Of a stretch of DNA of 64,000 bases, positions 29,965 to 63,133 are shown one piece after another. The notes beneath the pieces were generated by a model that had not been told where the DNA came from, searched no databases, and saw only the letters and a program-made list of their open reading frames with translations. This DNA comes from Octopus vulgaris (lineage: Eukaryota), in contig OX597823.1 in the NCBI GenBank assembly GCA_951406725.2, forward strand, positions 63,550,001-63,614,000, read 5' to 3'. The position numbers and the translations under genes were made by a program. Positions within the stretch are counted from its first letter, which is position 1. Every line of letters begins with the position of its first letter.

Positions 29965-30270
29965 TTCCTTTCTCTTTTAGCCTGATACTTATTCTATCGG
30001 TATCTTTGCCGAACCACTAAGTTGTGGGGACGCAAACACACCAACACCGGTTGTCAAGCGGTGCTGGGGAACAAACATTGATACAAAGAGACACACACAT
30101 AGATATCGATATATATGCAATGGGATTCTTTCAGTTTCTGTCTATCAAATCCACTCACAAGTCTTTGCACGAGGCTATAGTAGAAGACACTTGCCCAAGG
30201 TGCCATGCAGTGGGACTGAACCCGGTACCATGTTGTTAGGAAGCAAGTTTCTTCCAACATAGCCACGCTA
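29965..30270 (-). mobile_element. SINE family B, partial
   Basis: Matches family B in reverse complement. Confidence 0.8.
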
Positions 30271-30914
30271 GCAAACACACACTAATTCATATACACACCG
30301 ACACATATACATACACACAACATATACCTCCACGCGCACGCACACATACACTTACGTACACACATATAAGCACAGACACACACATACATACGCACACTTG
30401 CACACAATCATACATACGTATATATACACACACACGCACGTACAAGCACACACGCACACATACACTAAGTCTAAGCACAGTTACTCGCCATACACACAAA
30501 AAAACACACACGTACACACACACATACTACAACAAAACACACACACGATACATATACACACACACACATACCTCCCTGTTTCTGATCTGCCTTTCTGACT
30601 TGCTAGGGTACCCCCACCCACTCCTTAATTCCCTACTGCCTGCTACCAGCCATCGTCCACCATTCCACTACTGCTTGCTACCAGCCATCGTCCACCATAC
30701 ACACACATACACACACACGCACACACTCACACACACACCCTTGTCATCTCGCACACCTTTTTATCATTCCTTCTCTGATTCAGCTCTTTTGTTTTTAAAA
30801 AACACTTTTCCTTCCTTTTGACCACTTCCGTATTTTTAGTATGTGACCTCGTGTAGACTACCTGCTATTTTTTTTTCCTCTGTCCTCCCGTCTCGGGATG
30901 TTTCTTTCTCCTAT

Positions 30915-30949
30915 GTTTCCGACGAAGAGCTCCGCTCGAAACGTCAAAC
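30915..30949 (+). ncRNA. Minimal type I hammerhead ribozyme motif
   Basis: GTTT-CCGACGA-A-GAGC-TCC-GCTC-GAAA-CGTC-AAAC: stem I GTTT/AAAC, stem II GAGC/GCTC, ACGT palindromic stem III, GUC site; core has a U4C variant. Confidence 0.65.
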
Positions 30950-31041
30950 CCTCCTTCTTCCCTTCTTTCCTGAGCGTCCAATAATACTTTATTTGTTCCA
31001 CATCCTTGCGTTGTTGTTTTTTTGTTTTCTTGTTTGGATTA

Positions 31042-31121
<80 letters not shown>

Positions 31122-31440
31122 AACTATTACTGGATTTATATACTAACCGTTGAATAATCTATTTTGAATACCTAACTGTGAGCAAACGGGTAAACTTTTG
31201 GAGAAATCCCTTACTAATTGCATATATATACGTGTGTGTGTGTGTGTGTAACACAGAACCAAAAATAGTTATAAATATCTAAACATTACCCAAGTCTAAT
31301 TTGATTAAATATGAGGAAAACCCAAGCAATACCAAAGTAAATGATTCCCACAAACTATGAATCCACAAACACTTTAAAAGAATAGAGTAAAACTCAGAAT
31401 AACGAGACTATGATTTGAGAAATTCACAGAGAAATTCATA

Positions 31441-31870
31441 GGTGCAGGAGTGGCTGTGTGGTAAGTAGCTTGCTAACCAACCACATGGTTCCGGGTTCAG
31501 TCCCACTGCGTGGCATCTTGGGCAAGTGTCTTCTGCTATAGCCCCGGGCCGACCAATGCCTTGTGAGTGGATTTGGTAGACGGAAACTGAAAGAAGCCTG
31601 TCGTATATATGTATATATATATGTATATGTGTGTGTGTGTATGTGTGTGTGTGTCTGTGTTTGTCCCCCTAACATTGCTTGACAACCGATGCTGGTGTGT
31701 TTACGTCCCCGTCACTTAGCGGTTCGGCAAAAAGAGACCGATAGAATAAGCACTGGGCTTACAAAGAATAAGTCCCGGGGTCGATTTGCTCGACTAAAGG
31801 CGGTGCTCCAGCATGGCCGCAGTCAAAATGACTGAAACAAGTAAAAGAGTAAAAGAGAGTAAAGAGAGTC
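31441..31870 (+). mobile_element. SINE family B, full length
   Basis: Near-identical to 3465-3904. Confidence 0.9.
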
Positions 31871-31934
31871 GAGCATAATTTGTGCGTATCCCCATCATCA
31901 GCTGCCCGAATGGATATCATGAAATGGATATCAT

Positions 31935-32530
31935 CAAACGTTTGACATCACTCGAAAAAGACATTTTCTTTGGATAGAAAATATAAACATATAGATTCCC
32001 TTACAGCTGTTTCTAGAATAGCCAAGCATGTGGATCATGATATTGAGTAAGGATTCCTTAAGCTGAGTATACCATCATCAGAGAGGGAGAAGTCTGAGAG
32101 ATGTAAAAATGTGGGAATATCTCCAGTCGAGGATATTAATATATTCCAGTTTGTCAAAAAACGAGGGAAGGATCAGAGTAAGATAGGTATGCGTTGCATA
32201 GTTCCATGTTCAAATAAATAATACAGTTATAATTAATATCTATAAGCAGTTTCAAATGAGAGTGTTCGATGATAATTCATGGCAAGGAATAATGGAAGTT
32301 ACCAGTTCTAATTTTGAATAGAGAGTGAATGAGGGTTGAGTAGGAATATTATATTATAGTGTGGAAGAAAGAGAGACAACTCTAATGGCGGTATATCCAG
32401 CTTATGGAATCCTTACCCAATATCATGATCCACATGCTTGGCTATTCTAGAAACAGCTGTAAGGAACTCTATATCGTTATATTCTCTATCTAAATTAAAT
32501 GTCTTTTTCGAACGGTGCCAAACGTTTTGC
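31935..32530. repeat. Inverted repeat with arms of about 150 bp (Penelope-like inverted terminal structure)
   Basis: 31935-32085 is the reverse complement of about 32380-32530, sharing CCTTACAGCTGTTTCTAGAATAGCCAAGCATGTGGATCATGATATTG. Confidence 0.85.
31997..32088 (-). ncRNA. Hammerhead ribozyme motif with long stem II
   Basis: Minus strand CTCT-CTGATGA-(imperfect stem-loop of about 60 nt)-GAAA-CAGCTGT-A-AGGG; ACAGCTGT palindrome, GUA site. Confidence 0.55.
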
Positions 32531-32611
32531 TTTTTCGTGTCTACTTTAATCTATATCTATGCACTCAATGAGAAACCACCTCTAACCACCTTCGATAGGC
32601 AGTCTCAACAT

Positions 32612-32932
32612 CAGGGCTGGCCAACCCGAGGCCTGCGAGCCGCATGCAGCCCGCAAACTCTTGTCTGATACTTTCTTGAAATGGGCTTATTTAAAGATAC
32701 ATTTTAATAATTTTATCAAAAAATTAAAGATTGCAGTGAAAAGTAAAAAAAGAAACATATTACTGTTTTTACAACGATAATATTTCATGTTTAATCAACG
32801 ATCTTTCATTCATTATTGTAATAATAGCATGAGAAAGCAAAATACTTTCCATTCTGTCAGTATACAAGCGGCCCTCAAAAAACTTTCTGTGATTAAAGTG
32901 GCCCGCAATGTAATTCGAGTTGGCCAGGCCTG
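32612..32932. mobile_element. hAT MITE with 8-bp TSD
   Basis: TIRs CAGGGCTGGCCAAC / GTTGGCCAGGCCTG; perfect CTCAACAT duplication at 32604-32611 and 32933-32940. Confidence 0.92.
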
Positions 32933-34244
32933 CTCAACATCACACTTTCCAGTTGCCGTTCAAGCCGGAGTTTAAGTGGTAAACCAAACGGAGCACTCAT
33001 AGTACATACCTATTACTTTACATCAGCTGACGATATAATTAAAACAATTAATTAATAAGATGTCCTAACTACAAGCACACTAAATAATCCATTATAATTA
33101 AACGGCCAACGAGCCTGTTACTTGGAAAGAACTCAAATTACCCTTAATCATAGAATAAATAAATACGCATACACACGCGTTGGCATCGGAATGGAATTGA
33201 GAAGTTCACTTCGTAGCCATATGACTTTTTGGAGGTTCATAATAAACTGTGCGGCATATGGTCCCTGGTGTTGATTTGTATACGACCCGTAAGAACTGAC
33301 AGAGGTACTAAACTTAAGAAAGCCAATATCGGTGTAGATTTCCAGTAAATGAACCCAATAAAAAAAAAACCGTACGCGCACGCGCGTGTATGCGTGCATG
33401 AGCGTAAACAGACCACCCACATTAATGTATGTCCCTTATGACAGTTATTGGATAAACCGGGCGAGTTAAGAGTCATTGGCGGTATTAAATTCCATTATGA
33501 TTAATGAGTGTTACCGTTTAGTTACCCTGTAATTTTCGTTGATATTTCAGTACATGAGGCAACTTTCGACCTCGTAGCTTACATCATGGTTTCAATAAAG
33601 TAATTGTTTCTAATAATATAATAACGATAATAATTCAGCTTGTTTTTTCTGTGGCGTATGTTTGTAAAAGTAATGGTATTAGAAAGCAAACAGTTTCAAA
33701 CGTTTCAAACGAAGGCCATCGAAAAATTGACTGAATTTCTTGTAATAATTTCAAACGAAAACGAAAATACAAAATGGCTTAAATACATAAGATTTTTCAT
33801 CTGATAAACAGCTCTGGACATCTTGACATGAAATTCACTTCAAAAATCAAGAGAGAAAACTTACTTAAAAAGATATAAAACAAGGGAAATAACTCTCTAA
33901 GTTTCACTATGCAGGGAGTTAACAAAATAGAAAAGTTTGAACTAACAGTGTAATTACATGGATGAGACAAAAAGTGTTATGCGCAAATGCAAACATAATG
34001 ATTAGTTTCGTCTGGTCAGATGCTATCCGTTCCACATATTGTGAGACATCCGTACGTCATTGGATTTAACAGCCATCCATCCGACCGTCCATGTATGTAT
34101 GTATGTATGTATGTATGTATGTATGTATGTATGTATGTATGTATGTATGTATGTATACGTGCAGATCTGTATGTTTCGTTTTATGTACGTATTCTCATGC
34201 ATATAGTTGCATGTCTAAACATGCTCGTATATACTTAAATGATT

Positions 34245-34575
34245 AACTTCTAGAAAGTTTGACAATTTTTTTACGGTTCTAGTGATGGATTTGATCTACA
34301 GTCGTCGAACCAGCTTTCTCCTTTCTGGTTTTGAGAAGCTTGATATCTCAAAATTGATACTTAGGTAGTCTGTTACATATCCCAGTGCCCCAATAATTAC
34401 AGGTATAATGCTGAACTTGTAATCTGGATAGTGTAGCTATAAATTCCTCAATGGTTCAGCCTGGGTATTTTCTTTTTCGCTGATCTTTAGCTGTATGTTT
34501 ACATCTGCTGGGCGGCTGATTTCCACAACTGTACGCAATTTCTCTTCTCTACCCCAAATTACAGCATCAGGTCTA
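34245..34575 (-). mobile_element. RLE domain fragment of an R4/Dong-like LINE
   Basis: Minus strand reads RPDAVIWGREEKLRTVVEISRPADVNIQLKISEKE...FSIIPVIIGALGYV, which fits the RPD..E and IPVIIGALG motifs. Confidence 0.8.
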
Positions 34576-34792
34576 TGCATACATGCATGCATGAATAAGA
34601 TGAAACCTAGCCGCCAGAACTTTGGGCTATATATGCTGTCTAAGACTACTCCCTAATATGTTGCAATAGTTGACAATAACGGGCATATGGCGTAGTGGTT
34701 AAGAGCGCAGGCTACTAACCCCAAGATTCCGAGTTCGATTCCAGACAGTAACCTGAATAATAATAATATTAATAATAATAATAATAATAATG

Positions 34793-34826
<34 letters not shown>

Positions 34827-34844
34827 CTTAGGAATGAGAACCCC

Positions 34845-34894
34845 TTGACACCTGATGAAGGCTGAAGGGTATATCAGCCGAAACGTTGTGTTAA
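34845..34894 (+). ncRNA. Minimal type I hammerhead ribozyme motif
   Basis: TTGACAC-CTGATGA-A-GGCTGA-AGGGTATA-TCAGCC-GAAA-CGTT-GTGTTAA: 7-bp stem I, 6-bp stem II, ACGT palindromic stem III, GUU site. Confidence 0.75.
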
Positions 34895-35058
34895 CAACAA
34901 ACAAGATGAGGACAAATATCCGTCAAATATAAATAATATAAGTAATGTAAATAATGTACATAATTCCTCATCTCTTAAAATGCCCACGGGCATATGGCAT
35001 AGTGGTTAAGAGCACGGGTTGCTAACCCCAAGATTCCAAGATCGATTCCAGGCAATGA

Positions 35059-35103
<45 letters not shown>

Positions 35104-35152
35104 CATCAAAAAATTCCTTAGGAATGGGACCCTAGGTTCGAAATTTCCTCAA

Positions 35153-35196
35153 GACACCTGATGAAGGCTAGAAGGTATATCAGCTGAAACGTGTTA
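35153..35196 (+). ncRNA. Degenerate second hammerhead copy
   Basis: GACAC-CTGATGA-AGGCTAGAAGGTATATCAGCT-GAAA-CGTGTT; stem II mismatches and a 2-nt deletion at the cleavage site. Confidence 0.5.
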
Positions 35197-35362
35197 GCAA
35201 CAAACAAGATGAGGACAAATATCCATTGAATATAATTTATATAATTTTCTGTTTGGTAAATAAGGACGATATTCTAACAATTACTGAAACGTTGTAGGCT
35301 GGTTCTTACTGTTGGTAATTTACTGTTCCAATTAGAGTTATTGCTCCAGTAGTTATTGTTCT

Positions 35363-35519
35363 CAGGCGCGGTCCCAGGAATTTTTTCGAAGAGAGGGCAC
35401 AAGGTCAGAAGGGAATACAACTCCAGGAGAAAAGGGCGTAATAACATTATTTAGAAGGGAGCACTTCTTTTCTCGAGTGGGGCACGTGCCCCTCAACCCC
35501 CACCCTTGGTCCGCCCCTG
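35363..35519. mobile_element. Small MITE with GC-rich TIRs
   Basis: CAGGCGCGGTCCCAGG ... CCTTGGTCCGCCCCTG imperfect inverted ends. Confidence 0.55.
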
Positions 35520-35769
35520 GTTCCTGCACTAGCGCTTGTACTATGGCTATCGAGATTTTCGTGACCTAGAATGGTAAACAATTAATACTTGATTAATTTT
35601 CCTCTGAACTCTATTAGTATCAGGCAACATTATTTTGACTATGTTATTTCACGTTGCTCTTTTTACTATTGTTCACTAAAAGCTTCCTCAACCGCAATGT
35701 GCTTCATTTAACAAATTCAGATTTATTATTACACGATACTTAGGCTGGTAGAATCGTTAGCACGTCGAC

Positions 35770-36095
35770 CTTGGCCTGGTTTTTCATCGGTTATGACGAA
35801 GAGGGTTCCAATTCACCCGATCAATGGATCATCCTGCTCGTGAAATTAACGTACAAGTGGCCGAGCAATCCACAGATTCGTGGACCCTTAATGGAGTTCT
35901 TAGGGAGATTCACCCTGACACAGAATGTGGCAAGGCTGGCCCTTTAAATTACAAGCACAACTCATTTTTGCCTGCTCAGTGGACTGGTGCAACGTGAAAT
36001 AAAGTGTCTTGCTCAAGAACAAGACGCACCGTTAGGAATCGAACTCACAGCTTTAGAATCGTGAGCTGAATGCGCTATCCACTAAGACACACGTA
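35770..36095 (-). mobile_element. Third tRNA-derived SINE family, degenerate
   Basis: Minus strand CTTAGTGGATAGCGCA...GAGTTCGATTCC...TTGAGCAAGACACTTTATTTCAC; related pieces at about 45600-45660 and 47690-47790. Confidence 0.65.
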
Positions 36096-37334
36096 TGCTA
36101 GCACGTCGGAAAAAATACTTAGCGAAATTTCTTCCGGGTCTTTACATTCAGCGTTCAAATTTCGCCAGGGTCGTCTTAACTTTTCTTCCATTCTGAGTCG
36201 GTGAAAATGAGTAAAAGTTTCAATCTGCGGTAGATACAGTCGATTTGACCATCCCTCAAAATTGATGGTCTTGCGCCAAAATTAGAAAGAATTAAAATTT
36301 ATTCCATTCTTCCTTATCTCTTCTCATTTTCCAGATTATCGTTAGAGCGTTAGTTAAAATGATATAAAATGATTTTGCAGTGTTTTTATCGGTCTCTTTA
36401 GATTCTGAATTCAAATCCCGCTGTGGTCAAGTTTGCTTTTCATCTTTTTGGAATTGGTAAAAAAAAAAAGTGTTAGTCAAGAACTGGAGTGGATTTAATT
36501 GACTTCCAATCTATGATTATATGGAATGGGCTAAAAATGGCACAACAAATAAAACCACATCTTCGCTCAAACTGGAGGCTCTAACAACGGGTAATATCAA
36601 ACAATAATATCTGTAACAATTTACCAACACACATAGACAAAGGCGCGCACACACACACACACACACGCACACATGCACACACACATACACACACATTCTC
36701 GCACTCATCAATATTTCGTTCATTCATCTACACACGGTCTTTCTCGCGCTAAAAGGGAACCCTATTTAAGGGTATAACGTAACACACACATACAAAAACA
36801 CACGTAAACACCCATACAAACACACGCACGCACACACACAGAACCATACACGCACGTCTCTCACACACACGTAAACACCCACACAAACACACACATACAC
36901 ACGTATACACAAGGAATACTTAAAGGGAAGTTAGCAGTGAAGTTTCTCCACCGTTCAGCGAAGTAAATTCGTTGATTAATCGACTGGATTACCTCCCTTT
37001 GAATTGTGTAAGTGACCCAGTATTATGGATACACTTTCTCAACATAATCCTCAGATAAAATCAGAACGATACATTGAGTGTGATAAGATCGTACTTTTAA
37101 GAATTACATCTACAGTTCATCCGATGGTCTTCCATAGAGTTTCCGTCTACTCAGTTTTCACCCACAAAATACGAGTCGACCCGAAACTAAAGAAAATGAT
37201 ATTCGTCCAAGATGCCATACCGTAGAATCAAACCCAACAACTCGTGATTGTGAAGCGAACTATGAGCGAATGATGGTTAATTCGGCCGTACTGCGCTTGA
37301 AAATTACATTTCGTGTAAAGAGACCAACATATTC

Positions 37335-37440
<106 letters not shown>

Positions 37441-38082
37441 TAGACAGACAGAGAGAGAGACAGAGAGATGCACTAGTATCCGACTTCTATACGTATACAG
37501 GAAAGAAGAATTTCAAAAAAAAGGGGGGGGGGAATCATGATCAAGAGAAGGGAAGTAACTCCTGTTTTAGTCAATTTCAGTTTTAGACGCATGTCGCCGT
37601 CGTCGTTGTGGTTTTGCCGCTGCACCGTCATTAGTGTCTTTGCTACGCTTGTTTAACCCCAGATCAGTTGTGACCCTACACATTCTACTCAAAGGAATTC
37701 CAGCCAAAACTATTCTGTTATTTTCCATTTTATTTCATTACGTCATAACTTTATTTCTGGCGATGGGATGTAATACAGTTGATTTGGTTGCTATTTCTAG
37801 AAACTTTGAGTGGTTGCGTCATGGTTTTTCTCATTAGATACTTTTTGTGTTTCACTCTTTTACTGGCTTCGGTCATTGATCTGGGGCCATGCCAAGGCAC
37901 TATTTTGAAGGATTTTAGTTCATCATACCAGTCTTAGTACTTATTTTTTGTTCTTTTTTTTTAAAGTCTGGTACCTATTTTATCAATCTTTGTCGGACCA
38001 CTAAGTTGCGGGATATGACCACAGTATTTTTTTACCAGCAGTGTACCGTCAAGACAGATATAAGGATAGACATGTGAACACA

Positions 38083-38124
<42 letters not shown>

Positions 38125-38150
38125 TACATATACTTACATTTATATACATA

Positions 38151-38783
38151 CTAGCAGCTAAGTCCGTTTCACCCGGTCACTTTGGATGACGTGACTGTAA
38201 AACCTGCTCTGTGTAAGCATTCGACTTGTTTGGGTACGTTTACGTTAAAAAACAATTTTAGAGTGACTTTTTCTATCAAAATGCAAAAAATAACTGACTA
38301 ACAAAAAAAAAACAACCAAGATTCAACCAAATCAAAAAATAAACCCAAATACTAAGAAAACAAAGATGAACCATCCCACTTCCATGGCGCGCGCACACGC
38401 ACACACACATATACACACAAACACACACGCACATGCACACACACACACATTCACATACCCCCTTTTACATATATTCACACAGTCGAAACGCTGTTTGATT
38501 TATTTTTTCAGTGTACAATTTTCATCATCCCACTACCAAGTATGACATTACCCCCTTCCTTCCTTATTCATTTATCACCCCTTCCTTTCTCATTCATAAA
38601 CACATGAGTATTATTATACTAGATTATCACGGTAACCATGGGAGCTATGAAAAAAATACAAAGCCCAGCATCACCACCGGATCATTCTACAGATCTGTAA
38701 TTTTTCGTTCAATTCCACCCAGCCGTTTGACCGTGAATCCCAAGACAAGAAAGAATCGCCCATGTCAAATTCATATGTATAGA
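38151..38783 (-). mobile_element. Non-autonomous Helitron-like element
   Basis: Minus strand 5' A|TCTATACATATGAATTTGAC and 3' CCGGGTGAAACGG hairpin followed by CTGCTAG|T. Confidence 0.65.
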
Positions 38784-38959
38784 TATTATGGCGTTTCTGT
38801 CGACCATTTTCGCTCATAATCGTCAGCACGTGACTATTGTAGAAGACAATTGTCCAAGATGCTACATAATGGAACCGAACACGAAACCACGTAGTGGAAC
38901 CGAACGCGAAACCATGTAGCTGGAAGTGAACTTCGCAACCACATAACCACGCTTGCACC

Positions 38960-39078
38960 AAGCTAAAGATTGTGTAGGTTTCTCAAACTGTCAGCGATGT
39001 AAGGCAATAACTTAACTGGACGTTGCTTAACTTGTTAATCGAATGAGAACTGGTGCTTTCAATGTGATATGGCCTTAC
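38960..39078 (-). pseudogene. Decayed 5S rRNA copy or 5S-derived SINE head
   Basis: Minus strand GGCCATATCACATTGAAAGCACCAGTTCTCATTCGATTAACAAGTTAAGCAACGT closely follows the invertebrate 5S rRNA 5' half; the 3' half is more diverged. Confidence 0.75.
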
Positions 39079-39104
39079 GTTGATTCGTTTTAATTGTAAT
39101 TTGA

Positions 39105-39825
39105 TTGATACGAGTGAAGAAGTTTAACTATCCCAGCGCTGTATTTAGGAATGATGGAATGTGGGAGGCTGAAGTGAATGCTAAAATTGCAGGTACTGGC
39201 GTAGTGATGCGCTGGCTACAGTTTCGATACTCAGGAGAGGAAAGGTTGGTAAACAAATCCAAACTTGCCAGCTTTAATTTTGTTTTTGTGCCTAGGGAAT
39301 GTTGACTAACAACCGAAAGAGTATGAAAGCAAATAGAAGTGGATGGAATGGGTTCTTCTGGTGGATCTTTGAAGTTATGTTACTCAACAGGGTGCGTAGC
39401 TCTGAGGTCAGGAAGACTCTCCAGTTTGATTCTTACTTCTTCGCGTTCAGAGGTCACAGCTTTGGTACTACGGACATATGATTAGACTGTTTGCTGGAAA
39501 GAATCGCAAAATGGATTCTGCAAGCCAAACCAACTGGCAGGAGACCCAGGAGGTAATCAAGAATAAGTTAGTCATACTTGGGAATGTAGCCGAAAAGATC
39601 AATGCCGATTGCTTCTGAGAGGACTCTACGGAGGATTCTAATCCCACAACCCCACGAAGAATAGTGGACGGGGAAGATGGATGGATGGATGGATGGATGG
39701 ATGGATGGATGGATGGATGGATGGATGGATGGATGGATGGATGGATGGATGGATGGATGGATGGATGGATGGATGGATGGATGGATGGATGGATGGATGG
39801 ATGGATGGATGGATGGATGGATGGA
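39105..39825 (+). mobile_element. RTE-clade (Expander/Rex3-like) LINE 3' fragment with (GATG)n tail
   Basis: Broken frames give [43 protein letters not shown] and [11 protein letters not shown], followed directly by a long (GATG)n. Confidence 0.8.
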
Positions 39826-40134
39826 TAACAACAGTGAGGTAAATGTTTATCAAGATAGACTCAAGGTCGTACAGTGGTGAGAGATATTGTCGATTGGGGG
39901 GCATTCCCCGCTTGGAGGCAGCTGACCGATCCGAGAGTGTGACTGAATCGGTCTCCCGTTGCGGCTCACGATACGTTTTCATTTATTGATGTTTATGTAA
40001 TATACCAATAAGATTTAATTTATATTTCCATAACAGCACATACAATTGATGTACCTTGTAGATTGTGCTCCCTGGATTGGCTCTTGAATTATTTTTTTCC
40101 ATCCGTGAGAAACACAAAATACATACGAAACATA

Positions 40135-42051: not shown

Positions 42052-42633
42052 TCTTTTCTACTCTCGGCACGTGGCCCATAACTTTTGGGGAAGGGGTCAG
42101 TCGATTAGATCGACCCCAGTACGCAACTGGTGCTTACTTTACCGACCCCGAAAGGATGAAAGGCAAAGTCAACTTCGGCGGAATTTGAACTCAGAACGTA
42201 GCAACAGACGAAATACCTATTTCTTTATTGCCCACGAGGGGCTAAACACAGAGGGGACAAACAAGGACAGACAAACAGATTAAGTCGATTATATCGACCC
42301 CAGTGCGTAATTGCTACTTATTTAATCGACCCCGAAAGGATGAAAGGCAAAGTCGACCTCAGCGGAATTTGAACTCAGAACGTAAAGACAGACGAAATAC
42401 CTATTTCTTTACTACCCACAAGGGGCTAAACACAGAGAAAACAAACAAGGACAGACAAAGGGATTAAGTCGATTATATCGAGTCCAGTGCCTAACTGGCA
42501 CTTAATTTATCTACCCCGAAAGGATGAAAGGCAAAGTCGACCTCGGCGGAATTTGAACTCAGAACGTAACGGCAGACGAAATACGACTACGCATTTAGCC
42601 CGGCGTGCTAACGTTTCTGCCAAGCTCGCCGCC
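42052..42633 (-). mobile_element. Head-to-tail trimer of SINE family A
   Basis: One head followed by three bodies; both internal junctions read tail AAAGAAATAG|GTATTTCGTC. Confidence 0.85.
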
Positions 42634-43816: not shown

Positions 43817-44652
43817 AATCTTTATTATAGGCACAATGGCCTGAATGAAGAGGGGACATAACAATACATTACAGGACATGGGGGACATATAACAAAAATA
43901 CAGAAAGGATGATATGAAATGAAATATAAATAATGAATTAAATGAAATAGCCTACGAGCCCCCCCCAAAGCTCGCAGTTTCATTTACAATTACAGTTATA
44001 CTATCTGGAGTGTTCGTCAGTAATGTAAACGAGTAATTCATCCTGTTCTATAACGCCGGGCAAACTATCATATCGAACGTAGTTCACAGCTGTATTTGAA
44101 AACAAATTTATTGATTTATTTTTCCACTATTACAGCCTTTATTTTGTTATCGTATATCCTCGGATTCAATTTCACTCTTGTTAGATTTTTCATTATCACT
44201 AATTTTTGACAATTTCTTTACCTTTTTTGTACAACATTACAGCTCTGAGATTTCTTCCTTTGGGTCTTCCTCCTTCCTTGCTTGTTTTCAGACTTTCTTC
44301 AACTTTTGTTGACCACTTTTCCGCTTCCTCCAACGTTCGACCTTCACTCAATTCAGTTGTTTTCTTTTTCTTTTCGTGTGTTCGATCCTCTGTCTCGACG
44401 GCAGGTTTTTTTGTTTTTATTTTCTTTTTTTCGTCTTTGGGTGGTGATTTCACCCGTGGTCGCTTTCTATCTTCTATTTCTTCTGTTCTCTCCTTTTCTT
44501 TCTCCTTCACTAACTCGTCGCCACTTTCCATATTATCTGTTGTCATGATCTCTTCTTCCACTTGTAGTTCCTCATTCTCTCTTTCTAACTCCACTGTCAA
44601 AGCTTCTATTCCTTCCTCCAGGGTTATCGTCTTCTCTTGTTGTTCTCTTTGA
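43817..44652 (-). mobile_element. Retroelement fragment with charged ORF1-like coding remnant and LINE-type tail
   Basis: ORF 44199-44660 is E/K-rich. The downstream UTR ends TGTCCCCTCTTCATTCAGGCCATTGTGCCTATAATAAAGA, similar to the 12111 tail. Confidence 0.5.
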
Positions 44653-44677
44653 GGACACACATATTACACACACACAC

Positions 44678-44763
<86 letters not shown>

Positions 44764-44820
44764 GCATGTGATGTTCGTGTGTGGTGTGTGGCGTGTGCGT
44801 GTGTGTGTTTGTGTGTGTAT

Positions 44821-45049
44821 AGGTGTAGGAGTGACTGTGTGGCAAGAATCTTGTTTCTCAACCCCATGGTACCGGGTTCAGTCCCACTGCGTGGCTCCTT
44901 GGGCAAGCGTCTTCTACTATAGCCTCGGGCCGACCAAAGCCTTGTGAGTGAATTTGTTAGACGGAGACTGAGAGAAACCCGTCATATATATTTATATATA
45001 CATATATGTATGTATGTTTGTATGTATGTATGTATGTATTTTACCACCT

Positions 45050-45080
<31 letters not shown>

Positions 45081-45322
45081 ATGTGTGTGTGTATGTATGT
45101 ATGTATGTATGTATGTATGTATATATTTGCGTGTCTGTGTTTGTCGCCCCACCGTCGCTTGAGGACCGATGTTGGTGTGTTTACGTCCCCGTAACTTAGC
45201 GGTTCGGCAAAAGTGACCGATAGAATAAGTACTAGGCTTACAAAAATTATGTTTTGGGGTCGATTTGTTCGACTGAAGTGCTTCAGCATGGCCACAATCA
45301 AATGACTGAAACAAATAAAAGA
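44821..45322 (+). mobile_element. SINE family B (duplicated at about 55728-56229)
   Basis: Colinear with the other family B copies. Confidence 0.85.
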
Positions 45323-46359
45323 ATATATATACTGAGGGTGCCTCCAAATTAAGGCAACCAAATGTACATATATACATGCATACATGCATGCATACACACA
45401 CACACAAACATACATGGACCCCCTTTGGTTGCGAATGACCATGGGACTGCACCTAGAAAGTTACCCTTCGAGGTACAAGTCCAGGCAAGGTGTTTTTTGG
45501 AAGACCACAGCAGTCGTTCATGCATACCAGCCTATCCTTTCCATACCACCGATGTTATCCCACGGGGAGGCAAAGGCCGATACAGCTTGGCACCAGTGAC
45601 GTCGCAACTCATTTCTACAGCTGAGTGAACTGAAGTAATGTGAAATAAAGTGTTTTGCGTAATAATACTACACACAGCTCAGTCGGCAACAGGCTTCTTT
45701 TATTTTCCGCTTATCAAATACACAAAAAAGGCTTTGATCGGCACGGGTCTGTGGTAGAAGAAGACACTTGTCCATGTTACCAACCACGCAGTGGGATTGA
45801 ATCTGGAACCAAGTGGTAGGAAAGCAAACATCGTACCTCAATTCCACATTTGTGCCAACTTGTAGGAACAAAATAGAATCCTAACGTTTTAAGCCACATT
45901 ATTTATTTGGGAGACAAAAATAATTTTCAAAGCCATTTACTGAGATACCTATTTTATCAATACTGGAGTAGTAAGTAAAATAATTTATATTTAAGACATC
46001 CATCACTGCTGTCGTCTGCAATTCATACAAGACGCTTACTATACGTAAGGGACATAACTCTTTCTGGTACAAGGGTCACAACTCTTTTTCTCCTGGCAAG
46101 GGAAATAACTCTTCTCATGACTATTTGATAAATAATTCTACTGAGCTGCGTTAACATTTCATATAATCTTATCTACGCCATAACGTTCGTTTTACGTGGA
46201 TAACAAAGAAATTTAAATGATCATAATGTAATGCATGTCAAATAATGAATCATTTCCGTTTTGTTTCATTCGTTCGCAGTATACAGTTTCAAATTTGAAG
46301 ATCCACACAAAACTTGAGAAAGGACAGTGGAGCATGGTAGATGAGTGTAATACGGTATA

Positions 46360-46549
46360 TTCTTTTACTTGTTTCAGTTATTAGACAGCAGCCATGCTGG
46401 GGCACTGCCTCGAAGAATTTTAGTCAAATGAATCGATCCCAGTACTTATATTTTTTTAAAGCCTGGTACTTATTCAATCGGCCGATTTTTTTTTCCGATC
46501 CACTAGTCTACGGGGACATAAACACATCAAATCGGATCTCAAGCGGTGG

Positions 46550-46643
<94 letters not shown>

Positions 46644-46792
46644 GACGGGTTTCTTTCGGTTTCTTCTACTAAATCCATTCACAAGGCTTTGGTCGGCCCG
46701 AGCCTATAGTAGAAAGCATTCGTCCAAAGTGCCATGCAGGGGTACTGAAATCAGCACCGTGCGGTTGGGAGGCCTTCTATTACGATGTAGCC
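46360..46792 (-). mobile_element. SINE family B, diverged (duplicated at about 57267-57680)
   Basis: Reverse-complement match with an internal (CA)n. Confidence 0.8.
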
Positions 46793-47160
46793 ATACCGTC
46801 CCCGGAAACTGTTGTATAGTGAAAGCGTATATCCCTCCCGGTAAAAAGCGGTAGTAGAAGCCATTATAAATAGACCAGTAGCCGGCCGATAGTAGAAGGT
46901 CGAGAAGAGAAGGTCGAGAGTACGTGTAGACAGTGTTGATAGTCGTGTCTGTGCTGATATAGTAATTATACTGTGATACTGAGTGGACGTTATAACGATC
47001 CAACCTTTCGAGGATAAGACTGTACGACTAAGGGGTTGTACAGTGCCATATCGAACCATTTTATCTATGACCCCGGAATATAACAATATCTGTCAAAGCG
47101 ACACCCGTCGTCAAAAGACAGATACAACAGTGGCAAAAGAACGCTTTACAACAGAAATCA

Positions 47161-47210
<50 letters not shown>

Positions 47211-47235
47211 GTACGTACGTACATAACATACATAT

Positions 47236-47467
47236 ATTTCTTTACTACCCACAATGGGCTAAACATAGAGGGGACAAACAAGGACAGTCAAAGGGATTAA
47301 GTCGATTACATCGACCCCAGTGCGTAACTGGTACTTAATTTATCGACCCCGAAAGGATGAAAGGCAAAGTCGACCTCGGCGGAATTTGAACCCAGAACAC
47401 GTGACAGCAGACGAAATACGGCTACGCATTTCGCCCGACGTGCTAATGATTCTGCCAGCTCGCCGCC
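47236..47467 (-). mobile_element. SINE family A with 15-bp TSD (duplicated at about 58117-58348)
   Basis: TACATAACATACATA at 47220-47234 and 47468-47482. Confidence 0.9.
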
Positions 47468-47981
47468 TACATAACATACATACGCACGCACACACACATA
47501 CGTACGTACGTACGTACGTACATGCACACATACATACATACAATACGATATCGACCAGGCAATCGGGTTGATGTACACTACGCAGTTCCTCACACTGGTG
47601 GTGGTTTTTGAATAATGGCACACTCTGAGCTAGGTTGGCAGGCAGACGTTCCCTCTGAACGGTCAATCAGTCCGTTGCCGGGCTACCCTTTTACAGCTGA
47701 ATGGACTGGAGCAACATGGAATAAAGTGTGTTGCTCAAGAACGCAATGCACAGCTGGTCTGGGAAACGACACCGCCACTTGGCTACTCGCCTATACATAC
47801 ATACATACATACATACATACATACATACATACATACATACATACATACATACGTACATACATGCATACACACATACACACACACACTCACAACCACACAT
47901 ACACATATATACATATTCGTGTATATATACACACACATCCATCCATCTACCCGTACATACATACATACATACATACACACA

Positions 47982-48022
<41 letters not shown>

Positions 48023-48024
<2 letters not shown>

Positions 48025-48820
48025 GGTGGTACCCAAAAGAAACCGGAATTTTACAATATTATTTTATTCACTTAAGGCGGTGAGCTGGCAGAATCGTTAG
48101 CACACTAGACGAAATGCCTAGCGCTATTTCGCCCGTCGCTACGTTCTGAGTTCAAATTCCGCCGACGTCGACTTAACCGTTTATCCTTTCGGGGGACGAT
48201 CGATAAAATAAGTACCATTTGGACACTGGGGTCGATGTAATCGATTCATCCCCACCTTCCCCAAGCTGCCCTTGTGGCAAAAACGTGAAATAATTATTTT
48301 ATTCCCTTAGTTTTTACATGTTTACACTTTTATCGCCTGCAAAGTATTCTCCATTTGAAGCAATTCATCAGTCCAGACGCGTTTTTCACCGTTCGAAGCA
48401 GTCCCAGAACTCTTGCGAAGTGATGCCTTTTAACGCTTCCGTCGTTTTTTTCTTCAACTGTTCCACATCTGCAAATTCTGTAGCACCAGCTTTCGTCACC
48501 AGTGATGACTTTTGTAAAAAGGTCCGGATTAATTTCCAACTGTTCTTTCAATTCACGACAGACATTCAGTCGTGACTGCTTTTGATCTTTCGTGAGCAAA
48601 GGAGACACAATTTTTGCTGCAACTTTTTTCATTCACATTTCCTCGCTCAAAATTTGTTGGCAGGAGCTCCAGGACACGCCAGTCATATCAACAAGTTCGT
48701 CCAGTGATGGTCCTTCAAGATAAGTTCACGAATTTCCATAATGTTTTCATTCGTTCAGGAGATCGACGGACGCCCTGAACAAGGTTGCTCTTCAAGTGAC
48801 AAGTAACCATTCCTAAAGTG
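48023..48820 (-). mobile_element. Internally deleted mariner remnant interrupted by SINE A (duplicated at about 58904-59700)
   Basis: KIVSPLLTKDQKQSRLNVCRELK...KVITGDESWCY mariner motif. SINE A at about 48075-48292 is flanked by TTATTTTATTC-like direct repeats. Confidence 0.85.
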
Positions 48821-49176
48821 TGAAAATCACTCATAAATTTGTGCTTTGTTTCGGCTTTGTTTCGGCTTTGTTTCCTTTTGCCACTATTGTTGATGTTGTG
48901 GTTGTTATTATTCTTATATGGTTAAAATACTTACCGTTCAGTTCACAAATAACTTTATTGTCACATTCTTGCTTTCTGTTATCGTTGCTATTGCAGCTCT
49001 ACCCTACGACCTTAAAACTACGTGAGACGTTTTCGAAATCGCCGCCGCTGCTAAATAGAAAAACAGCAGCAAAGCTAGGGTAAAGAATAAGATGGCGGGC
49101 CACCACGAGGACGCCATTATGGTAACAGTATTATGGGGTCTGCTGCATATGCCTGTATAGACTTGGAAGTCCGAGA

Positions 49177-49283
49177 CAGGGGCTGCAAACTCAAGGGTTT
49201 CTCTAGGCGGCACACACAAGAGCTGCTCTAGGCGGTACACACAAGGGCTGCCCTAGGCGGCACACACTCTAGTTGCGCCTCTG
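49177..49283. repeat. Tiny TIR element with three internal repeats of about 26 bp
   Basis: CAGGGGCTGCAAACT ... AGTTGCGCCTCTG ends with three CTAGGCGG(C/T)ACACAC units. Confidence 0.6.
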
Positions 49284-49483
49284 TAGAAATATACATGACG
49301 CTCAGCTGGCGGGCATATATGTATACGATTATAACGAAGTCTCTGTTATACATGATTATATATTTAGTGGACTAATTTGTTTCACATACTAAAATTATGA
49401 ATTCCAATATTGCGATTTTTTTTTCCTTTACAAATCACATTCTGCGCTATATCTCTTCTGTCAGTTTTAAGCCGACCATTAAG

Positions 49484-49995
49484 TACCGTAAATCTTCGAG
49501 TATAGTCCGCCCTCGAGTATAATACGCAGGGGATTTTTAGGGGGCTGTTCCTCGGAAAAACCTAAACCTTGTGTATAATAAGCACCTCTTCTCTAACTTG
49601 AGTCAAGGAGGTCTATATAACGTTGTTGGTTTGTAAAAATGTATACGGTAACGTCCTTTATTATTATTGTACATATAACATAATGCAAACGTGTAGCTTT
49701 TTGTGCATTTTGTTTGCAGAAAATAAAGAAGAACAGTAATAACAGTAATAACGTTTAATAAATGTTGCTTACTGCAAGTTATGGATGATTCTTTTATGAC
49801 TTCATTGCTTTCAGGCTTAGCTTAAGGTATTTTCGCGCCCAACATCACAAAATGCGTCTGAATAAACATTGCCGGAAAGCAAATAGAGACTCGGACATTG
49901 CTTAGAAAATAATTTTCATTTTTAATCTCGTACTAGGGATTTTGACCTTTAAATTTGGGGGAAAAAATGCGGATTATAGTCGAGGATTTACGGTA
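49484..49995. mobile_element. pogo/Tigger-like MITE (duplicated at 60365-60876)
   Basis: TA-CCGTAAATCTTCGAGTATAGTCCGC / GCGGATTATAGTCGAGGATTTACGG-TA; same family as 28092. Confidence 0.88.
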
Positions 49996-50224
49996 TATAA
50001 TTCCTTTTACAAATTACTCGCAAGTTATCTAAAAGGATATTCAATCAACATTTTACGATACCATGATAATTTTTAAGAGCGCTACAGAGAAAATAATACA
50101 CAAGAAGATCGCTTTACAACCGAGTGGTCTCGGGTTCAGTCTCTCTGCGAAAGTACTTTCTACCATAGCTTCAGGCCGGCCAATGTCTAGTGAGCTGTAG
50201 ACAGAAACTATACAACTTTTTAGA

Positions 50225-50259
<35 letters not shown>

Positions 50260-50720
50260 GCGCCCGCGCGTACTTGTAATTTCAACACCACTTGGCAATT
50301 GGTGTTGGTTTGCTTACGTCCCCGTAACTTAGATGGTTCGGTGAAAGAGTCCGACTGAATAAGTACCGGACTTAGAAAAGATAATTTCTGGGGTCGATTT
50401 GTTCGACTAAACACCGTCAAGACAGTAACCCATAACAACTGCAGTCCAATAACTGAAACAAATAAATAATGACGGATTACGCTCAACATACGTACAAAGT
50501 ATATGTATGCCGTCTATTGCCTCTGAATGGGATTTGGGGTGAGTTGTCTCGCCTGTCTATGACTTCCAGGTATTTTAACACCCGGTGCTTTGAGAGAGTC
50601 ATCTTCACCACGTCAAATCGCAGCCTACTGGCGAATAAGCACAGCATGTACATTGAGTATATGTGTTAGCTAATGTTTACAGCGCTTGCGCTGCTTCTTA
50701 TTCATATTTGAATATATATG

Positions 50721-50792
<72 letters not shown>

Positions 50793-50795
<3 letters not shown>

Positions 50796-51830
50796 GACAG
50801 CTGATGAAGGGGAATTTTCCTTGTGTTGTTTGTCTTGTACTCTGTTTTTTCGTTGTTAAAAAAAAGGTCCGTTTTATGTTTGTTTTTACGTTTTCGTTTC
50901 TCGTTGAGTTCTACGTCTATTTGTGGTGTCCTGTACTCACGTATATATATTTATATATGCATGTATATATACATGTAGATGTAGGTACGTACATATATGT
51001 ATGTATGGATGCATATATTTTATTTATTACACTATTGTATGACTGAGCGCCCTCGCGTCGTTTCGTTTCGTTTCCCCCAAGTAAGTTTTTATATATAATT
51101 ATGACGCGAAACTCTATAACCCTTTGCTTGACCTTCCCTTCCTTCCTTGTCTTCCTCTTTGCCTGTCTCTCTTTTTCACCCTTTCTGGTTTCCTTTCCCC
51201 TCTCTCTCTCTCTCTCTCTCTCTCACTCCTACTCATCTCTCTCACAGCCGGGCGACCACTTCCTTTCGCTTGTGGCCTCCTAACAGTGAACACGCTTTCT
51301 TCCTGCGCTCTTAAAAAATCTTTCCTCGTCTAGGCCAAAAAAGGCCCTCATTGTTTGTTTTCTTGTTTGTTTTTATCTCTTGTACTGTATTTTTTTGTAA
51401 TTGTATTTTTATTTTGTATTTTATTTTGTAATTTTATTTGTATCGTTTTTACGTCCTGTTTTTGTCACATTTTTTCCTTTCCTTGTTTTTACCCCTCTGC
51501 AAAGGAATTTTATTTAATTCTTTCGCAGGAAGGGCTAGTTCGACGAGTCGTGTTCTGTCCTCACCTTCGAAACACGCATGGAGTCGTACTAGGGACAGCT
51601 GATGAAGGGGAATTTTCCTTGTGTTGTTTGTCTTGTACTCTGTTTTTTCGTTGTTAAAAAAAGGTCCGTTTCCATGTTTGTTTTTACGTTTTCGTTTCTC
51701 GTTGAGTTCTACGTCTATTTGTGGTGTCCTGTACTCACGTATATATATTTATATATGCATGCATATATACATGTAGATGTAGGTACGTACATATATGTAT
51801 GTATGGATGCATATATTTTATTTATTACAC

Positions 51831-51838
<8 letters not shown>
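50793..51838 (+). mobile_element. Non-coding element with direct terminal repeats of about 245 bp inserted in (TA)n (duplicated at about 61713-62755)
   Basis: GGGACAGCTGATGAAGGGG...TTATTACACTATT at 50793 and again at 51591; flanked by (TA)n. Confidence 0.75.
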
Positions 51839-51876
<38 letters not shown>

Positions 51877-51974
51877 TTTTATAAGCTTGAACCTTATAGC
51901 GATCAACGCGCAATGACTAAGGACTAATAATGGGGCATATAAGCCTTCGACAGAAAAAAAATGTAGGTTTTCCG

Positions 51975-52045
51975 GCACGCATGGGACTCGAACTCACATC
52001 CCTTTCTTTACGCGACTAATTCTGTTACCGATTACACAAGCACAC
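51975..52045 (-). other. tRNA-like sequence (pseudogene or SINE head)
   Basis: Minus strand TGTGTAATCGGTA and GAGTTCGAGTCCC boxes; a related piece lies at about 53838-53897. No clean cloverleaf. Confidence 0.5.
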
Positions 52046-52146
52046 TAACTTGGGTTTGCCTTTCTAATTTAAGAACTATATTAGTTCGTAGTAAACGAAC
52101 TTTCATGTACTTTCATTGTAAATGGTTTTGTTAAGCAGTGTCGAGT

Positions 52147-52215
<69 letters not shown>

Positions 52216-52217
<2 letters not shown>

Positions 52218-52430
52218 AAGGGTGCTGAAATGTTCTTTGCTTTGGGTAAAAGAAAATACAGAATGGTCAGTTAATTATAATTTTATTCAACATATTCCAC
52301 TCTCAGATTCACACACTTATTGCAGTGGTCCTTCAGTTTTTCAAGCCCTGTAAAAGAACTCGGAAGATTGGGCTGCCAACCAGGTCTTTCGCGACACCCT
52401 TAAAGCCAGGAACTTTTCAGTGCCCCCCCC
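52216..52430. mobile_element. mariner-type MITE
   Basis: TIRs GGGTGCTGAAATGTTCTTTGCTTT / AAAGCCAGGAACTTTTCAGTGCCC. Confidence 0.7.
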
Positions 52431-52481
52431 CCATATATGTGTATGTATCTATAGTTATATGTGTGTGTGTGTATGTGTGTG

Positions 52482-52728
52482 TATTGGGTTGATGCTTAAT
52501 TATCGCGTTTTTTTTTCCAACAAATTTTATTCAACAAAAACAATAACATGTTACAAAAACATCTGTAAATGATTATTCCGGAGCATATTCACCACCTACT
52601 TCAATTACGGCTTCCCATTTGCTTGGAAGACGGTCAGACCAAATCATTTAAAGATGCTTTTGTTAAATATCGTTTGTTATTGTTTTTGTTGAAAAAAAAA
52701 AAGCCGCAATAATTATGCACCAACCATA
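52482..52728 (-). mobile_element. mariner deletion derivative
   Basis: TIRs TATTGGGTTGATGCTTAATTATCGCG / CGCAATAATTATGCACCAACCATA; the interior encodes a mariner-like C-terminus [16 protein letters not shown]. Confidence 0.85.
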
Positions 52729-53109
52729 TGTGTATACACACACACATATATATATACATATATATATATATACATATATATATATACATATATATATATA
52801 CATATATATATATACATATATATATATACATATATATATATACATATATATATACATATATACATATATATACATATATATATATACATATATACATATA
52901 TACATATATATACATATATATATATACATATATACATATATATATATACATATATATATACATATATATATATACATATATATATACATATATAATAATA
53001 AATATTAGGGAATAAATCCAAATTTACAGGGAAAAATCAGATTTAGGATTGAATCCAATTTTATAGTAAAATATTATATAACTTTAAAATTGAATAGAAG
53101 ATATGAAAT

Positions 53110-53153
53110 CCACCTGATGAATGTCATTTGAAGACAGGAAACAATTGTAGTGG
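53110..53153 (+). ncRNA. Minimal type I hammerhead ribozyme motif
   Basis: CCAC-CTGATGA-A-TGTC-ATTTGAA-GACA-G-GAAA-CAATTGT-A-GTGG: stem I CCAC/GTGG, stem II TGTC/GACA, ACAATTGT palindrome, GUA site. Confidence 0.75.
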
Positions 53154-55551: not shown

Positions 55552-55580
55552 CTTTGAGGACACACATATTACACACACAC

Positions 55581-55663
<83 letters not shown>

Positions 55664-55956
55664 TGTATGTGCATGTGATGTTCGTGTGTGGTGTGTGGCG
55701 TGTGCGTGTGTGTGTTTGTGTGTGTATAGGTGTAGGAGTGACTGTGTGGCAAGAATCTTGTTTCTCAACCCCATGGTACCGGGTTCAGTCCCACTGCGTG
55801 GCTCCTTGGGCAAGCGTCTTCTACTATAGCCTCGGGCCGACCAAAGCCTTGTGAGTGAATTTGTTAGACGGAGACTGAGAGAAACCCGTCATATATATTT
55901 ATATATACATATATGTATGTATGTTTGTATGTATGTATGTATGTATTTTACCACCT

Positions 55957-55987
<31 letters not shown>

Positions 55988-57458: not shown

Positions 57459-57530
<72 letters not shown>

Positions 57531-58047
57531 GACGGGTTTCTTTCGGTTTCTTCTACTAAATCCATTCACAAGGCTTTGGTCGGCCCGAGCCTATAGTAGA
57601 AAGCATTCGTCCAAAGTGCCATGCAGGGGTACTGAAATCAGCACCGTGCGGTTGGGAGGCCTTCTATTACGATGTAGCCATACCGTCCCCGGAAACTGTT
57701 GTATAGTGAAAGCGTATATCCCTCCCGGTAAAAAGCGGTAGTAGAAGCCATTATAAATAGACCAGTAGCCGGCCGATAGTAGAAGGTCGAGAAGAGAAGG
57801 TCGAGAGTACGTGTAGACAGTGTTGATAGTCGTGTCTGTGCTGATATAGTAATTATACTGTGATACTGAGTGGACGTTATAACGATCCAACCTTTCGAGG
57901 ATAAGACTGTACGACTAAGGGGTTGTACAGTGCCATATCGAACCATTTTATCTATGACCCCGGAATATAACAATATCTGTCAAAGCGACACCCGTCGTCA
58001 AAAGACAGATACAACAGTGGCAAAAGAACGCTTTACAACAGAAATCA

Positions 58048-58091
<44 letters not shown>

Positions 58092-58839: not shown

Positions 58840-58905
<66 letters not shown>

Positions 58906-61105: not shown

Positions 61106-61182
<77 letters not shown>

Positions 61183-61637: not shown

Positions 61638-61716
<79 letters not shown>

Positions 61717-62748: not shown

Positions 62749-62792
<44 letters not shown>

Positions 62793-63062
62793 TTTTATAA
62801 GCTTGAACCTTATAGCGATCAACGCGCAATGACTAAGGACTAATAATGGGGCATATAAGCCTTCGACAGAAAAAAAATGTAGGTTTTCCGGCACGCATGG
62901 GACTCGAACTCACATCCCTTTCTTTACGCGACTAATTCTGTTACCGATTACACAAGCACACTAACTTGGGTTTGCCTTTCTAATTTAAGAACTATATTAG
63001 TTCGTAGTAAACGAACTTTCATGTACTTTCATTGTAAATGGTTTTGTTAAGCAGTGTCGAGT

Positions 63063-63133
<71 letters not shown>

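Follow-up and report, generated by a model that had tools for sequence, protein, structure and literature searches.

An abundant tRNA-headed repeat of Octopus vulgaris with a minimal hammerhead of the Penelope type, probably mobilised by Penelope-like enzymes

Organization of the locus

The window, by which we mean the whole stretch of 64,000 nucleotides of Octopus vulgaris DNA under analysis, contains two head-to-tail units starting at positions 34681 and 34988, which confirms the arrangement with a spacing of 307 bp given in the preliminary description. Both units are composed of a tRNA-like head, an (AAT)n spacer and a hammerhead motif, all on the plus strand. They are about 87% identical outside (AAT)n, with 87% for the heads (10 of 79 columns differing) as well as for the hammerhead parts (10 of 86); in each case four of the ten differences are of the CpG type.

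In unit 1, the head (34679 to 34757), delimited by its boxes and their spacing and by the clustering of family 5' ends at 34679 to 34681, is followed by an (AAT)n spacer of 23.3 copies (34756 to 34825) and a linker (34826 to 34846) which, compared with unit 2 and further copies, carries a deletion of about 18 nt. Among the best 24 of 1428 loose ends obtained from public sequencing runs (see below), this deletion is reflected by ends before 34847 in four out of four runs. Next, at 34845 to 34894, a minimal Penelope-type hammerhead (type I) is predicted, which is intact and would be cut after 34887. The 3' region (34895 to 34965) contains an AC-rich stretch, the 5' arm of a stem (34904 to 34912) and 9-mer repeats (34926 to 34964), and the unit ends in part of an optional tail (34966 to 34979); the 3' arm of the stem is located at 34965 to 34973. 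The following six nucleotides (34980 to 34985, minus strand) are an inverted copy of the first letters of the second head, a snap-back with counterparts in loose ends of the family and in joints between opposite strands.

Unit 2 consists of a head (34986 to 35064) with an A box at 34995 to 35005 and an altered B box at 35040 to 35048, an (AAT)n spacer of 12.7 copies (35063 to 35100), a linker without the deletion of unit 1 (35101 to 35152), a damaged hammerhead (35153 to 35199) with three nucleotides absent at 35190 and a weakened stem II, and a 3' region (35200 to 35239) lacking a tail, the flank resuming at 35240 in run X6. The first TTTT run 3' of head 1, at which Pol III is predicted to stop, was found at 35245 to 35248, and no run of four T is present inside either unit. 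Neither poly(A) nor an evident target-site duplication was seen at the locus. The locus, in which a partly tailed unit is followed by the 6-nt snap-back and then by a unit without a tail, fits a single integration event that involved template switching.

In run X6, both flanks (34603 to 34680 and 35240 to 35420) were covered at an equal single-contig depth of 45.6 with about 10% divergence, one piece stopping near 34680 and another one beginning at 35240. This pattern points to a site that is empty in a related species, lacking both units and a target-site duplication; the reading derives from X6, the joint itself being outside the best 15 of 227 joints.

The tRNA-like heads

The A box (34688 to 34698) and the B box (34733 to 34741) of unit 1 correspond to tRNA positions 8 and 53 counting from 34681. 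The pair is unique in the window, and none of 500 shuffled sequences had such a pair. In unit 2, the A box is kept (34995) and the B box has one change (35040). Thus, the boxes by which the heads had been recognised in the first place are indeed there. ARAGORN at default settings predicted no tRNA gene in the window, and Rfam searches (E up to 10; 30000 to 40000 and 34660 to 35260) matched neither tRNA nor hammerhead models, so that the term tRNA-like refers to boxes and spacing. Head 2 was called by ARAGORN solely at a relaxed score yielding seven matches in the window; with 7 to 90 matches there, relaxed searches were too unspecific to serve as evidence for a tRNA. Folding of the heads was no better than that of shuffled sequences (z 0.66 and 0.37). 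Judged by their sequence, the heads appear as worn tRNA-like heads, and the units, being short and non-coding with a 5' head and A and B boxes at tRNA spacing, have the make-up of tRNA-derived SINEs.

The predicted hammerheads

Hammerhead 1 has C3 at 34852, one extra nucleotide, a stem II of 6 bp, a stem I of 7 bp, an ACGT palindrome and U as H17 at 34887. A descriptor search, looser descriptor included, gave no match in 200 shuffled sequences. The sole further match in the real window, obtained with the looser descriptor at 21946 on the minus strand, is without the palindrome and probably due to chance. The core at 34845 to 34894 is thus intact and the one at about 35153 to 35196 damaged, as originally noted; in hammerhead 2, the three missing nucleotides at 35190 take away the cleavable triplet. 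The Rfam models run with Infernal, a check proposed at that time, missed both units.

According to Cervera and de la Pena (PMC4209133), minimal hammerheads of metazoan Penelope-like elements (PLEs) are marked by an extra nucleotide after position 9, a G10.1-C11.1 pair, a palindrome at 15.2-16.2, and a long stem II combined with a short stem I. Hammerhead 1 carries all four marks, with the extra nucleotide between 9 and 10.1, and is by its predicted structure a minimal hammerhead of the PLE pseudo-LTR (pLTR) type. The 6-bp stem I, 4-bp stem II and loop contacts of the canonical type I hammerhead of non-LTR retrozymes were not found; minimal hammerheads are also accepted in retrozymes in a 2026 preprint (bioRxiv 10.64898/2026.07.22.740005).

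The stem I of 7 bp in unit 1 arose in part through the deletion just upstream, and unit 2 together with the loose ends before 34847 implies a predicted stem I of 5 bp for the family. In a cross-family comparison of 12 representatives, stem I comprised 7, 4, 4, and 3 bp in four of them; two others, in which the cut is shifted, had 7 and 4 bp, and the remaining six had 0 bp. The average for mismatched pairs, used as control, was 0.53 bp. Where unit 2 deviates, the majority letters of the family restore stem II (best 40 of 142 differences), and its missing triplet is put back in reads (182 of 952 depth and 93 of 714), which indicates that the ancestral core was intact. In the minimum-energy fold of unit 1 the core pairs with itself, at -16.0 kcal/mol compared to -15.3 kcal/mol with stems I and II forced, and cofolded dimers formed other duplexes and no catalytic fold. 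Folding therefore neither demonstrates nor excludes activity.

A dispersed high-copy family

Twenty of the 24 public sequencing runs listed (13 studies) contain the stretch wholly or partly, and four organism labels hold 0.42 to 0.57 of its words. The family was characterized in four runs, two DNA contig sets and two RNA-seq read sets, about 6% of each of the latter being sampled; run X20, with a share of 0.07, and entries containing hardly any of the words were excluded. For joints, loose ends, and differences, the best 15 of 227, 24 of 1428, and 40 of 142, respectively, were evaluated. In the DNA runs, 36,750 and 30,884 contigs matched, and depth amounted to millions within the units compared to 0 to 46 in the unique flanks. 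Summed contig depth divided by single-copy depth gave 170,000 to 200,000, which is not valid as a copy number; the family size claimed here is thousands to tens of thousands of copies. Since most family records are 90 to 99% alike, the family is old.

Among the best 24 of 1428 loose ends, 5' ends cluster at 34679 to 34681 with a flank agreement of just 0.44 in the DNA runs, and the flanks disagree except for a short inverted copy of the opening letters of the head. The consensus rows of these 24 ends define two 3' classes about 27 nt apart. Tailed copies continue for 12 conserved letters beyond 34979 and then enter mixed flank (533 and 405 contigs); tail-less copies stop just after the 9-mer repeats, at the equivalent of about 34965 (254 plus 122 contigs in X1, 195 in X6). 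In neither class does an end run into a next head. The 9-mer repeats, which are internal in tailed copies, vary from two to four copies, and the predicted 9-bp stem formed by 34904 to 34912 and 34965 to 34973 (z -2.2 for 34888 to 34979) has its 3' arm in the tail. From the clustered 5' ends, the flanks mixed at both ends as in high-copy interspersed SINEs, and the lack of a next head it follows that most members of the family are dispersed monomers that begin at a fixed 5' position and may or may not carry a tail of about 27 nt. The expectation of tandem copies is not supported, as most copies among these loose ends terminate in mixed flanks.

The depth of the hammerhead part is about twice that of the head, so that many 3' parts may be headless. 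This difference may be due to truncation at the 5' side, to ends of other PLEs, or to clipping next to (AAT)n, which was skipped. Contigs break at (AAT)n; three of the rows listed link the head to the 3' part at other loci. It had also been considered that head and hammerhead part might occur independently elsewhere, as in a chance nesting. No lone part is present in the window, both copies share the same junction, and four other long AAT/TAT arrays in the window contain neither part.

Monomer or circular RNAs of about 300 nt had been predicted as products. Family reads accounted for 8763 of 12.9 million (0.068%) and 7145 of 12.0 million (0.060%) RNA reads, equally on both strands, and 79% of them extended into unrelated sequence, as expected of copies in host transcripts or of an unstranded library. 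There was no pile-up of RNA starts or ends, at the cut or anywhere else, in the two RNA-seq runs, whose libraries are ill-suited to small circles, and no depth step at the cut site with both units summed, neither in RNA (X23, about 4150 compared to 4280) nor in DNA. Since ordinary RNA-seq could hide small circles, this silence is weak evidence on the RNA and strong only on how the copies arose. At the locus, 34887 is the only cleavable site and a circle requires two cuts; the predicted products can therefore not be released from it.

Relation to Penelope-like elements

In the Octopus vulgaris assembly, 6.83% are PLEs, which makes partner PLEs plausible. PLE insertions are described with an optional tail of 30 to 40 bp (PMC8557442; PMC11167929). 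Their 5' end can be adjoined by an inverted, 5'-truncated copy, and partial tandems are described as well (PMC8557442). For the anole PLE, it is stated that reverse transcription begins at two internal sites, which define the tail, that AT-rich DNA is nicked and uncut RNA used, and that the hammerhead cuts only when the protein is present (PMC11167929). The tail of the window family, about 27 nt, is slightly under 30 to 40 bp. Inverted 5'-truncated copies and partial tandems are represented by joints of few contigs among the best 15 of 227. Nine of these 15 change strand; five connect the 5' end of the element (34679 to 34684) to an inverted 3' piece, each with one to four contigs per run and thus far below the reference family described next, and two are head snap-backs reaching 24 to 45 nt. 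Inversion joints at the cut site (34888 and 34890) were rejected as proof of cleavage with just one to two contigs per run. Among window ORFs of at least 110 aa, none was recognised as PLE-like by reading.

Reference families were obtained by applying a pattern made from the core of unit 1 to a metagenome collection (a sample of about 990). The pattern yielded 131 matches in 121 loci, of which 122 belong to two families with 114 and 8 matches; one unrelated locus, L015, was put into the larger family by the grouping rule. In both families, the motif follows the ends of PLE-like, GIY-YIG-like ORFs. Four locus proteins were scanned with Pfam, giving GIY-YIG with E values of 0.0011 (L035), 0.00057 (L030), and 0.02 (L012) and RVT_1 with 0.0031 (L056), all under the curated cut-offs. 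Viral contigs contained no match to the core pattern, and exact patterns from the head or the 3' part of the element had no match in the collections of metagenomes, viruses, and prokaryotes. A BLAST comparison of the two heads with the 121 loci found nothing, and relaxed ARAGORN on these loci produced noise. As the core is all that the reference families have in common with the window element, they illustrate the type of motif, not its parent. Among 107 copies of the larger family, the 3' ends form two peaks (52 and 46 copies) separated by about 35 nt. An adjacent inverted piece accompanies 60 of 82 truncated copies, an inflated number, since 10 loci were counted with both their arms and some loci are duplicates. 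Short snap-backs were not enriched in the reference PLE family (at least 6 nt in 3 of 82 compared to about 2% in the control).

Two further observations concern the metagenome loci. Among 21 inverted reference pieces starting at +16 to +69, seven (L003, L004, L018, L033, L038, L048, and L050) begin within 3 nt of the predicted cut, echoing post hoc the joints at 34888 and 34890; cleaved RNA may sometimes be a second template in the reference PLE family. Five loci (L023, L025, L053, L062, and L066) contain hammerhead-like cores without an adjacent stem I, some of them near bacterial-looking ORFs, and possibly represent other hammerhead topologies.

Proposed mode of mobilisation

A hammerhead of the Penelope type combined with copy ends of the Penelope type argues for mobilisation of an uncut transcript by PLEs. 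We consider it probable that the two units are decayed copies of an abundant, mostly dispersed repeat of about 300 bases, a Pol III-type SINE that is mobilised uncut by PLE enzymes and whose ribozyme is an inherited PLE end. The 3' part after (AAT)n was likely taken from the end (pseudo-LTR) of a PLE. The lack of a depth step or RNA-end pile-up at the cut resembles the situation in the anole PLE, which uses uncut RNA.

From the observed anatomy, abundance, dispersal, and end structure we infer a cycle of four steps. Pol III would start at the head and transcribe through to the first T run of the flank. The transcript of a lone copy would stay uncut, a hammerhead without stem III requiring a second copy. 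A PLE protein acting in trans would then bind the pLTR-derived part and nick AT-rich DNA, and reverse transcription would begin within the RNA, at either of two sites separated by about 27 nt; two internal start sites would generate tailed and tail-less copies and make poly(A) unnecessary. Finally, at the 5' end of the RNA, the cDNA would snap back or switch template, giving rise to head-to-head inversions and to occasional tandems such as the one at the locus. The ribozyme would likely be a passenger or a piece of the protein-binding site, cutting only in rare intact tandems.

Three other explanations have to be weighed against this cycle. The family could be a tRNA SINE that once captured a Penelope end and is copied via its 9-mers by a LINE of the RTE, CR1 or R4 type, the hammerhead being inert. 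Short tandem tails of LINE-dependent SINEs vary in copy number, as do the 9-mer repeats with two to four copies, and fragments that we take to be RTE-like and R4-like are present in the window. In the commoner 3' class listed, however, copies extend beyond the 9-mers by about 27 nt and stop at a second fixed point, the family shows snap-backs as well as inversions of the head-to-head kind, and the locus has no poly(A) and no evident target-site duplication, all of which makes copying by a LINE unlikely. Repeated nesting, in which a separate PLE-derived piece inserts into the (AAT)n tail of a short tRNA-like SINE and the composite is not one mobile unit, would agree with the roughly twofold depth of the hammerhead part over the head, with the position of a second hammerhead-like motif (53114, see below) likewise after a microsatellite, and with the preference of some PLE clades for microsatellites (PMC8557442). 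It is quite unlikely, though, given that both copies share order, strand, and junction, that the window has no lone head or lone hammerhead part and four other AAT/TAT arrays are empty, that three listed rows join head and 3' part at other loci, and that a related species, judging from X6, apparently lacks both units together.

The preliminary description favoured a Pol III-driven, self-cleaving repeat. Of this proposal, a real family, a Pol III-type head, and a minimal hammerhead of the dimer type are supported; a tandem retrozyme is not. In such a retrozyme, tandem transcripts would cleave themselves as dimers, and monomers of about 300 nt would be circularised and reinserted. The unit length falls into the range of 150 to 450 bp given for animal retrozymes in PMC7229834, no T run interrupts the tandem at the locus, and at the deviating positions of unit 2 the family majority restores stem II as well as the cleavable triplet. 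Against these points, copies begin with the tRNA head, neither at the cut nor at permuted positions, their 3' ends enter flank instead of a next head (best 24 of 1428 loose ends), a depth step or end pile-up at 34887/34888 is lacking, and one of two sites is cleavable. The share of the family in RNA reads, equal on both strands, adds to this, with small circles possibly missed. Two consecutive complete hammerheads, by which retrozymes are recognised in the preprint (bioRxiv 10.64898/2026.07.22.740005), are not present, as one of two is intact. Taken together, a retrozyme is unlikely.

Comparison with known elements

The closest precedent for the window family is schistosome Sm-alpha, which had rightly been named as such before. 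In the SINE-like repeats Sm-alpha and Sj-alpha, as in the window family, units of about 300 bp carry a type I hammerhead downstream of a Pol III-type promoter (PMC6765202, PMC8490949). Sm-alpha is described as forming tandem repeats freed by cleavage, with single copies losing the promoter. In contrast, octopus copies are, by comparison of descriptions, mostly monomers that keep the 5' head and have a minimal Penelope hammerhead and Penelope-type ends; cleaved multimers leaving the promoter at the 3' end were not found, 5' ends being located at the head without a depth step. PLE pLTRs and non-autonomous PLEs including MRC1 share the minimal hammerhead, 3' tail, adjacent inverted 5'-truncated copy, partial tandems, and AT-rich site (PMC4209133, PMC8557442, PMC11167929). 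Unlike these derivatives, the family has no ORF, a Pol III head resembling a tRNA together with (AAT)n takes the place of what lies upstream of the hammerhead, and copies start constantly at the head, without variable 5' truncation.

Animal non-LTR retrozymes are similar in unit size, low GC, type I hammerhead, and a proposed PLE origin, and monomer-rich families exist among them (PMC7229834; bioRxiv 10.64898/2026.07.22.740005). They are defined by tandems with at least two consecutive intact hammerheads and by circular RNA, whereas the locus has one intact hammerhead. There, the term tRNA refers to ligases only (PMC7229834), and the accessible text of the preprint does not mention a tRNA head (bioRxiv 10.64898/2026.07.22.740005). 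Helenus, Ajax, and Cassandra likewise combine a small-RNA-derived Pol III-type sequence with a non-autonomous, LINE-independent way of life; according to the part of PMC10886601 available they are LTR elements without a hammerhead, unlike the window family.

In the open full-text literature, neither a tRNA-headed SINE mobilised by PLEs nor a hammerhead in an octopus SINE was found, including the accessible text of PMC6962438, PMC10886601, PMC4758252, PMC3531059, PMC10294476, PMC5680766, and PMC13282606. OR2 is a CORE SINE (PMC4758252). The giant squid paper counts 235 hammerhead loci. Already known are non-autonomous PLE derivatives (PMC8557442), animal retrozymes (PMC7229834), and the combination of promoter and hammerhead in Sm-alpha (PMC6765202). 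By description, the window family resembles the octopus SINEs OK, OR1, and OR2 in being tRNA-derived, a few hundred bp long, of high copy number, and probably from the same host group. It could be one of these or another already named octopus SINE. No report linking OK, OR1, or OR2 to a hammerhead or PLE was found in the open full-text literature. All three are reportedly tRNA SINEs of octopus, attributed to Ohshima and Okada in 1994. Probably the family itself is contained in repeat libraries under some name. Set against the literature, what is new is the anatomy and the inferred dependence on PLEs.

SINEs are normally treated as parasites of LINEs. A wider proposal, which we put forward tentatively and with somewhat less than even confidence, is a class of SINEs parasitising PLEs instead: a Pol III head joined to a pLTR, with tens of thousands of copies in several related species, reverse transcription starting inside the RNA, and a dimer-only hammerhead that would spare monomers and cut tandem or paired transcripts. 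If true, a tRNA-headed family copied by PLEs would constitute a second route for SINEs, and SINEs, Sm-alpha, and animal retrozymes would be linked as products of a single partnership. The numerous copies, which begin at a fixed position, would be a natural record of how PLE integration ends, that is, of tail choice, snap-back, and template switch, steps termed still unvalidated in PMC11167929. The family would also define a candidate cis element of 100 to 160 nt for PLE mobilisation in trans.

Other features of the window

To the left of the element, a decayed fragment on the minus strand (about 34200 to 34583) is located between (ATGT)n-like runs and is multi-copy in the sequencing runs. It presumably represents the endonuclease end of a LINE of the R2/R4 type; Pfam found nothing in it (48 aa), and it appears to be a separate insertion. 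A tandem of 2.6 units of 184 bp (42099 to 42584) looks to us like another SINE family. On the minus strand at 38996 to 39080, a weak match to 5S rRNA (31.4 bits compared to a gathering score of 38) is perhaps a 5S-derived repeat head. A stretch of 8.4 kb is present twice with 99.4% identity (44647 to 53090 and 55552 to 64000) and a run of 100 N in the stretch between, possibly reflecting an assembly duplication. The second hammerhead-like motif is located at 53007 to 53230 on the plus strand (core 53110 to 53153), about 110 nt after a (TA)n run. It has stems I and II of 4 bp each, a palindromic stem III of 8 nt and A as H17 at 53149, is unrelated to the two units, and is likely the end of another Penelope-type family.
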